DNA of 64,000 bases from the NCBI RefSeq assembly GCF_003334405.1, contig NZ_QOWM01000002.1. The stretch is one strand, 5' to 3'. Position numbers and translations under genes: made by a program. This stretch comes from Escherichia coli. GTDB taxonomy: Bacteria > Pseudomonadota > Gammaproteobacteria > Enterobacterales > Enterobacteriaceae. Below the pieces are notes generated by a model, which did no database searches, was not told the origin of the DNA, and was given only the letters and a program-made list of their open reading frames with translations. This document shows, piece by piece, positions 40,098-41,553 of the stretch (within the stretch, counting starts at the first letter, position 1; every line of letters starts with the position of its first letter).

Positions 40098-40100
40098 TAA

Positions 40101-40127
40101 AAAGGCGCTGAATGGCGCTTTTTTATG
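40101..40127 (+). terminator. Hairpin + T-run after amiC
   Basis: AAAAAGGCGC-TGAATG-GCGCTTTTTT; short GC stem extended by A:T pairs, then T6. Confidence 0.4.
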
Positions 40128-40140
40128 GGAGACCAGAAAC

Positions 40141-40164
40141 AAAAAAACACCCGTTAGGGTGTTC
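40141..40164 (-). terminator. Rho-independent terminator of the tRNA-fMet transcript
   Basis: On the minus strand, immediately 3' of the tRNA: ACACCC-UAAC-GGGUGU followed by U7. Confidence 0.7.
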
Positions 40165-40170
40165 AATAAT

Positions 40171-40247
40171 TGGTTGCGGGGGCCGGATTTGAACCGACGA
40201 CCTTCGGGTTATGAGCCCGACGAGCTACCAGGCTGCTCCACCCCGCG
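40171..40247 (-). tRNA. metV: Initiator tRNA-fMet (anticodon CAU), single copy
   Basis: 77-nt exact match to the E. coli tRNA-fMet1 sequence (CGCGGGGTGGAGCAGCCTGGTAGCTCGTCGGGCTCATAACCCGAAGGTCGTCGGTTCAAATCCGGCCCCCGCAACCA) read on the minus strand. Only one copy is present, so which of metZ/metW/metV it corresponds to is arbitrary. Confidence 0.95.
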
Positions 40248-40455
40248 TCCGTGGATGCGCACTATACTCCGCTCGCGTTTTCATGCAACCTTTTTTTTAC
40301 CCCGATCACGGATTTGGCATGATTTTGAACAAAAACAAATCACTAAAGCCTATTTTTTGTGCAAAATTTGCGTCAGGGAGAGGCTGCTCATTTCATTAAA
40401 CGCGGCGGTTTGTTATCTTCGTTGCGCCTTATTTTTTAACCTGAAGAAGAGAACA

Positions 40456-41553
40456 ATGAAAGGACGTTGGGTAAAGTACCTTCTTATGGGCACGGTTGTG
40501 GCAATGCTTGCCGCCTGCTCTTCCAAACCAACCGATCGCGGACAGCAATATAAAGACGGGAAATTTACCCAGCCTTTCTCTCTGGTGAACCAGCCAGATG
40601 CCGTTGGCGCGCCGATTAACGCCGGTGATTTTGCCGAGCAAATTAACCATATCCGTAATTCGTCACCGCGTCTGTATGGCAACCAGAGTAATGTTTATAA
40701 CGCGGTGCAAGAGTGGCTGCGCGCAGGCGGTGATACCCGCAATATGCGCCAGTTCGGCATTGATGCCTGGCAGATGGAAGGTGCCGACAACTATGGTAAC
40801 GTGCAGTTTACCGGTTATTACACGCCGGTAATTCAGGCGCGCCATACCCGCCAGGGCGAGTTCCAGTATCCTATTTACCGTATGCCGCCAAAACGTGGTC
40901 GTCTGCCGTCTCGTGCGGAGATCTACGCGGGGGCATTGAGTGATAAATATATTCTCGCTTACAGTAACTCCCTGATGGATAACTTCATTATGGATGTGCA
41001 GGGTAGTGGGTATATCGACTTTGGTGATGGCAGTCCGCTTAACTTTTTCAGCTATGCAGGGAAAAACGGTCATGCCTATCGCAGCATTGGTAAGGTGCTG
41101 ATCGACCGTGGCGAAGTGAAAAAAGAAGATATGTCGATGCAGGCGATTCGTCACTGGGGCGAAACACACAGTGAAGCCGAGGTTCGCGAGCTGCTGGAAC
41201 AGAACCCGTCTTTCGTCTTCTTTAAACCGCAATCTTTTGCTCCGGTGAAAGGGGCAAGTGCGGTGCCGCTGGTTGGTCGCGCGTCAGTTGCCTCTGATCG
41301 TTCCATTATTCCGCCAGGTACTACCTTGCTGGCAGAAGTGCCGTTGCTGGATAATAACGGCAAATTTAATGGTCAGTACGAACTGCGTCTGATGGTGGCG
41401 CTGGATGTCGGTGGTGCAATCAAAGGCCAACACTTCGATATCTATCAAGGGATCGGGCCGGAAGCCGGACACCGCGCAGGTTGGTACAACCACTATGGAC
41501 GTGTCTGGGTGCTGAAAACCGCCCCGGGCGCAGGTAACGTCTTTAGCGGCTGA
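40456..41553 (+). CDS. mltA: Membrane-bound lytic murein transglycosylase A (lipoprotein)
   Basis: 365 aa from ATG 40456 (MKGRWVKYLLMGTVVAMLAACSS..., lipobox LAAC); the 508-aa track ORF reads through the tRNA and is rejected. Confidence 0.93.
   Translation: MKGRWVKYLLMGTVVAMLAACSSKPTDRGQQYKDGKFTQPFSLVNQPDAVGAPINAGDFAEQINHIRNSSPRLYGNQSNVYNAVQEWLRAGGDTRNMRQFGIDAWQMEGADNYGNVQFTGYYTPVIQARHTRQGEFQYPIYRMPPKRGRLPSRAEIYAGALSDKYILAYSNSLMDNFIMDVQGSGYIDFGDGSPLNFFSYAGKNGHAYRSIGKVLIDRGEVKKEDMSMQAIRHWGETHSEAEVRELLEQNPSFVFFKPQSFAPVKGASAVPLVGRASVASDRSIIPPGTTLLAEVPLLDNNGKFNGQYELRLMVALDVGGAIKGQHFDIYQGIGPEAGHRAGWYNHYGRVWVLKTAPGAGNVFSG

Follow-up and report, generated by a model that had tools for sequence, protein, structure and literature searches.

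To judge from its sequence, the amiC-mltA locus in the window, i.e., the whole 64-kb stretch of Escherichia coli DNA that was analyzed, is a contracted one-unit allele of metZ-metW-metV and not an array. The one-copy state is ordinary: variation of this kind is familiar, the locus is known to be unstable and hard to assemble, and the phenomenon is already known whichever cause holds, deletion or collapse. As the cause in the window, collapse of the repeats during assembly was considered the most likely, with about an even chance of being correct; the source strain would then truly be a three-copy strain.

The original prediction had placed a single tRNA-fMet gene on the minus strand of the amiC-mltA gap, and ARAGORN and Rfam both agree with it (Table 1). 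ARAGORN detected exactly one tRNA in the whole window, a tRNA-Met (CAT), and Rfam family RF00005 matched at 40174-40247 on the same strand with 61.4 bits, compared to a gathering score of 29. Besides this tRNA, no Rfam match with E ≤ 0.1 was obtained in the region 39900-40600, which was searched for an sRNA or remains of a second tRNA, and no tRNA fragments or spacer remnants were found elsewhere in the window. The gene has the sequence CGCGGGGTGGAGCAGCCTGGTAGCTCGTCGGGCTCATAACCCGAAGGTCGTCGGTTCAAATCCGGCCCCCGCAACCA and is identical in 77/77 nt to each of the three K-12 metZ/W/V copies. It shows the hallmarks of an initiator tRNA, namely a C1/A72 mismatch, an anticodon stem with three G-C pairs and an encoded CCA (for their significance, see PMC3017606). 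The acceptor ends read 5'-CGCGGGG...CCCCGCA-ACCA and the anticodon stem is UCGGG/CCCGA around CUCAUAA. Position 46 is a G (GAAGGTCGTC), as in fMet1 (metZWV type), and not an A as in fMet2 (K-12 metY), a distinction cited in a 2026 bioRxiv paper. With the CAU anticodon fold, the hallmarks and G46 all present, the gene belongs to the bacterial initiator tRNA fMet1. As expected, metY is absent from the window.

An own terminator hairpin had been claimed for the tRNA gene at 40141-40164, and the terminator scan placed it close by (Table 1). The stem GAACACCC-UAAC-GGGUGUUU is followed by a U-run to about 40135, and its fold has an energy of -11.1 kcal/mol (z = -2.9). The putative promoter consists of a -35 box TTGCAT (40283-40288), a 16-nt spacer and a -10 box TATAGT (40261-40266); 3' of the putative -10 box lies a G+C-rich discriminator (GCGCATCC), and an A-tract is found upstream of the putative promoter. 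A σ70 consensus scan reported no promoter for the tRNA unit, because the -35 box matches the consensus at only 3/6 positions. Since this stretch is identical in K-12, TTGCAT-16-TATAGT was treated by inference as the K-12 metZ promoter. The remaining unit of promoter region, tRNA-fMet1 and terminator appears complete; it should be expressed and yield a functional initiator tRNA.

Table 1. Features of the amiC-mltA region in the window.
Feature	Position	Strand	Basis
amiC (N-acetylmuramoyl-L-alanine amidase), left flank	38844..40097	+	BR1220 annotation 7255-8508 via gap-free alignment; ORF end 40097
Intrinsic terminator hairpin of the tRNA unit	40145..40164	-	terminator scan, RNA fold; identical in K-12
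tRNA-fMet1 gene, anticodon CAT	40171..40247	-	ARAGORN, Rfam RF00005, identity to the K-12 copies
Putative promoter of the tRNA unit	40261..40288	-	read by eye; base-for-base identical in K-12
mltA (murein transglycosylase A), right flank	40456..41553	+	BR1220 annotation 8867-9964 mapped by alignment; ORF end 41553

Comparison with K-12 confirmed the triplet which the original prediction had given for this site. In strain CJ236, three tRNA-Met genes are annotated there, arranged with a period of 110 bp (77-nt tRNA plus 33-nt spacer); the spacers between the copies are TCACCGTACTGCTTTTACTTCATCAAATTTGAT and TCACCGTACTGCTTTACTTCATCAAATTTTAAT (the spacer is also written TCACCGTACTGCTTT[T]ACTTCATCAAATTT...). 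The window shares with K-12 metZ-metW-metV the chromosomal position between amiC and mltA, the tRNA and the flanks on both the promoter side and the terminator side, but it has one unit where K-12 has three; at least two head-to-tail copies with spacers of about 33 nt, as in an array, are not present. Neither of the two 33-nt inter-copy spacers was found anywhere in the window, even when up to 3 substitutions were allowed. The tandem contraction, predicted at roughly 220 bp, is exactly 220 bp in the alignment to CJ236, with the flanks intact. A four-way alignment shows the window as the K-12 sequence with just these 220 bp, i.e., 2 x 110-bp units, missing between identical flanks. The difference lies inside or at a border of the repeat at 40171-40247; as the repeats are identical, its breakpoint has no unique position. 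Collinearity of the remaining window with K-12, also part of the original prediction, holds as well: a BLAST search of all 64 kb against the K-12 strains CJ236 and J53 and against the wild isolate BR1220 gave no other gap and only 11-18 SNPs.

With a sequence identity of about 99.97% to K-12, the window comes from a distinct, phylogroup-A-like strain. A K-12 laboratory derivative was considered as the source, as many K-12 strains stand at the top of the match list, and was rejected on account of 17-18 SNPs against K-12 in 64 kb. No perfect match was found among the RefSeq complete E. coli genomes; the best genome still differs by three private SNPs in 24 kb. Compared with BR1220, J53 and CJ236, the window has seven SNPs of its own (positions 698, 1764, 14233, 30317, 36247, 42418 and 55266), and an exact 41-mer across the one at 42418 was not found in the species-representative genome collection.

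The missing sequence is an integer number of units (2 x 110 bp), one intact repeat is left and the flanks are unaltered, as in a repeat-mediated deletion. This signature does not discriminate between a deletion and an assembly collapse, as both would leave the same one. In a collapse, the three identical 77-nt tRNAs and the near-identical 33-nt spacers would have been merged in the assembly graph, e.g., of a short-read or a short-read-first hybrid assembly. At least 77 identical bases recurring with a 110-bp period would exceed the k-mers typical for 150-nt reads. The exact two-unit gap between identical flanks with no other indel in 64 kb fits such an artifact, although the window is free of Ns and of other signs of misassembly. 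In a genuine deletion, to which we assign slightly less than an even chance, recombination or slippage would have removed the two 110-bp units in the strain itself, and the exact gap is likewise what a repeat-mediated deletion gives. The route would be either RecA-dependent, by unequal sister-chromatid exchange or intramolecular homologous recombination between the first and third copies, or RecA-independent, by replication slippage between the same identical copies. Loss of repeats by unequal exchange or slippage is an established behavior of short tandem repeats. The cell would be left with one gene at the metZWV site plus metY, which lies outside the window, and what is left of the array, one intact unit that should function, also suits a deletion. 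The source is not a RefSeq complete genome, which weakens the case for a genuine deletion; the window lies outside both the RefSeq complete and the species-representative sets and may stem from a draft, where a collapse is likelier.

The closest relatives of the window were sought with the array-free right arm only (40300-64000), which puts three-copy genomes at no disadvantage. Twelve genomes differ from the window in this arm only at its two private SNPs. Six of them were inspected (ML35, LAU-OXA, A14, NCTC9041, LR-64-2 and Z217-2), and all have three copies, as would be expected with a collapse. With three copies in these six near relatives, the ancestral state of the window lineage is, on sequence grounds, three copies, and the loss is a tip-level event. 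A lineage-wide single-copy trait was rejected for the same reason. It is thus highly improbable that the single copy is ancestral or typical of the lineage, which in that case would never have had the triplet or would have lost it long ago. One copy is found in WP5-S17-ESBL-10, which is also among the twelve closest right-arm matches and would suit an old loss, but the six three-copy relatives are equally close, three copies prevail in the species (see below) and one-copy genomes span many flank haplotypes.

Counting the tRNA-fMet copies at amiC-mltA across E. coli genomes, as proposed in the original prediction, was performed for 5,426 complete genomes. The queries placed N copies between 71 nt of flank on the amiC side and 73 nt on the mltA side, and an E-value cut-off was chosen that admits uninterrupted full-length matches only. 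In this amiC-array-mltA layout, one copy was found in 109 genomes, two in 116, three in 3,236 and four in 19. Three copies are therefore present in 93% of the genomes with this layout (3,236/3,480) and fewer than three in about 6%. The structure of the window was found in identical form in 2% of all complete E. coli genomes (109/5,426). Ordinary variation, for which a native single copy in finished sequence had been named as the sign, is accordingly seen at the population level. One-copy alleles identical to the window at the locus occur, for example, in BR1220, J53, MC1061, C3026, O104:H4 2009EL-2050 and O157:H7 Xuzhou21; the best one-copy genome differs from the window by private SNPs elsewhere and by nothing at the locus.

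Several features of this census point to a collapse. Genomes with one or two copies turn up in unrelated lineages, with a flank identity of 97.7% to 100%, and contractions outnumber expansions by about 12 to 1 (225 vs 19), whereas a collapse can only contract an array. Near-clonal O104:H4 isolates disagree, with one copy in 2009EL-2050 vs two in 2009EL-2071. The one-copy K-12 laboratory strains include J53, MC1061, C3026, MG1655p, OV2 and ME8067. DH10B is a descendant of MC1061 and was finished by Sanger sequencing; it has three copies, although the assembly of MC1061 has one, which contradicts the pedigree and speaks against genuine deletions. OV2, an unrelated K-12 line whose accession number neighbors that of MC1061, also has one copy, and the one-copy strains J53 and ME8067 have consecutive accession numbers. 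Of the 60 one-copy genomes (out of 109) that were listed, many stem from a small number of submission batches despite different flank haplotypes: eight belong to AP021-AP022 (mostly strains named WP...-ESBL), six have names beginning with GF (chicken meat) and five have names beginning with TUM, and further batches are STK/STS, CP0672xx-3xx and CP010xxx with S30/S43/M19. This clustering by project across flank haplotypes fits a pipeline effect and argues against genuine deletions, but it is suggestive only, as a statistic would require the project sizes. As a point against collapse, some of the one-copy genomes may be long-read assemblies, which would not collapse a 330-bp array. Other K-12 derivatives vary as well: assemblies of DH5a (CP076470), C600 (CP167195) and MT102 have two copies, CJ236 has three like DH10B, and XL10-Gold has four.

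By subtraction, about 1,946 of the 5,426 complete genomes (~36%) do not have the amiC-array-mltA layout. Three of these were inspected (ST131 2019_APHA, an ST648 genome and MRSN346595), and all have island genes between amiC and the tRNA site, comprising tssB/T6SS, a KpsF/GutQ-like isomerase and phosphoglycerate dehydrogenase. An island at this tRNA site, PAI-metV / T6SS, is documented (PMC3573123, PMC3032704), and most of the genomes outside the layout probably carry it. In genomes with this island (CFT073, W, ST131), the tRNA array is a landmark as well, but the window has no island, and its tRNA gene has amiC and mltA as immediate neighbors, like the array in K-12. In ST131, a T6SS gene is followed by two tRNA copies. 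In the ST648 genome (NZ_CP008697.1), ARAGORN detected no tRNA at the array site; at about 1480-1510 of the locus, a single N stands in place of the array, reading ...CATAAGTG N CCGTGGATGCGC... from the island-side to the mltA-side flank. The N in this 'complete' genome is a placeholder for a repeat that was not resolved. It indicates that finishers fail at this locus, in favor of a collapse in the window and against a genuine deletion.

MRSN346595 (NZ_CP018109.1), in turn, carries five tandem identical tRNA-fMet genes (locus coordinates 863-1381), and the four gaps between them are filled by two spacer types in turn (A,B,A,B). This order indicates that a two-unit 220-bp block was probably duplicated by unequal crossover, for which alternating spacers are typical. 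The array is thus known to be hypervariable, with 1 to 5 copies and changes in both directions. Such natural changes in size favor a genuine deletion and weigh against a collapse, as do the four-copy arrays in 19 genomes, which cannot come from a collapse and are reproduced in three independent, concordant assemblies of strain HS. The four copies in XL10-Gold, a K-12 strain, point the same way. A real gain of a unit inside one patient was reported for the homologous array of Klebsiella pneumoniae CG23-I, where the tRNA-fMet gene is 100% identical to that of E. coli (PMC9602619). This duplication resembles the difference in the window in being a change of whole gene units. It differs in being a gain, followed through longitudinal isolates and associated with faster growth, whereas the window would represent a loss of two units.

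The abundance of tRNA-fMet follows the gene copy number, and deletion of the whole metZWV locus is viable and leads to slower growth, cold sensitivity and relaxed fidelity of P-site selection (PMC3017606). The metZWV locus is among the few tRNA units whose deletion gives a clear growth defect (PMC11480407). The viability of the full deletion makes a partial one in the window plausible, and the loss of some initiator copies is reported as advantageous in poor media (Samhita 2014, as cited in PMC9981150), which also agrees with a genuine deletion. If the deletion is true, then of the four initiator genes normally present the strain would keep two, one of them metY, and about half of the normal dose. 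Slightly slower growth in rich medium, relaxed initiation fidelity and possibly a benefit in poor medium would be predicted from published work; the phenotype should be mild, i.e., a modest known physiological effect with no new mechanism. It appears unlikely that the contraction is real and at the same time part of a recurrent, selected dosage polymorphism, in which E. coli lineages repeatedly shed initiator-tRNA copies. A lower tRNA-fMet dose would then be advantageous in nutrient-poor or stressful niches, and the tandem array, with 1 to 5 copies, would serve as a fast and reversible 'dosage dial'.

If, as we prefer, the two units were lost in the assembly, the window would be one more case at a locus whose copy number seems to be wrong, or left unsettled, in an appreciable fraction of 'complete' E. 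coli genomes. Because of such miscounts of metZWV, tRNA gene counts derived from assemblies should be treated with caution.

A further observation, which is unrelated to the tRNA finding, was made in DH10B (NC_010473.1). At the locus positions 11982-15552, relA is split by an IS2 element, which is the relA1 allele.
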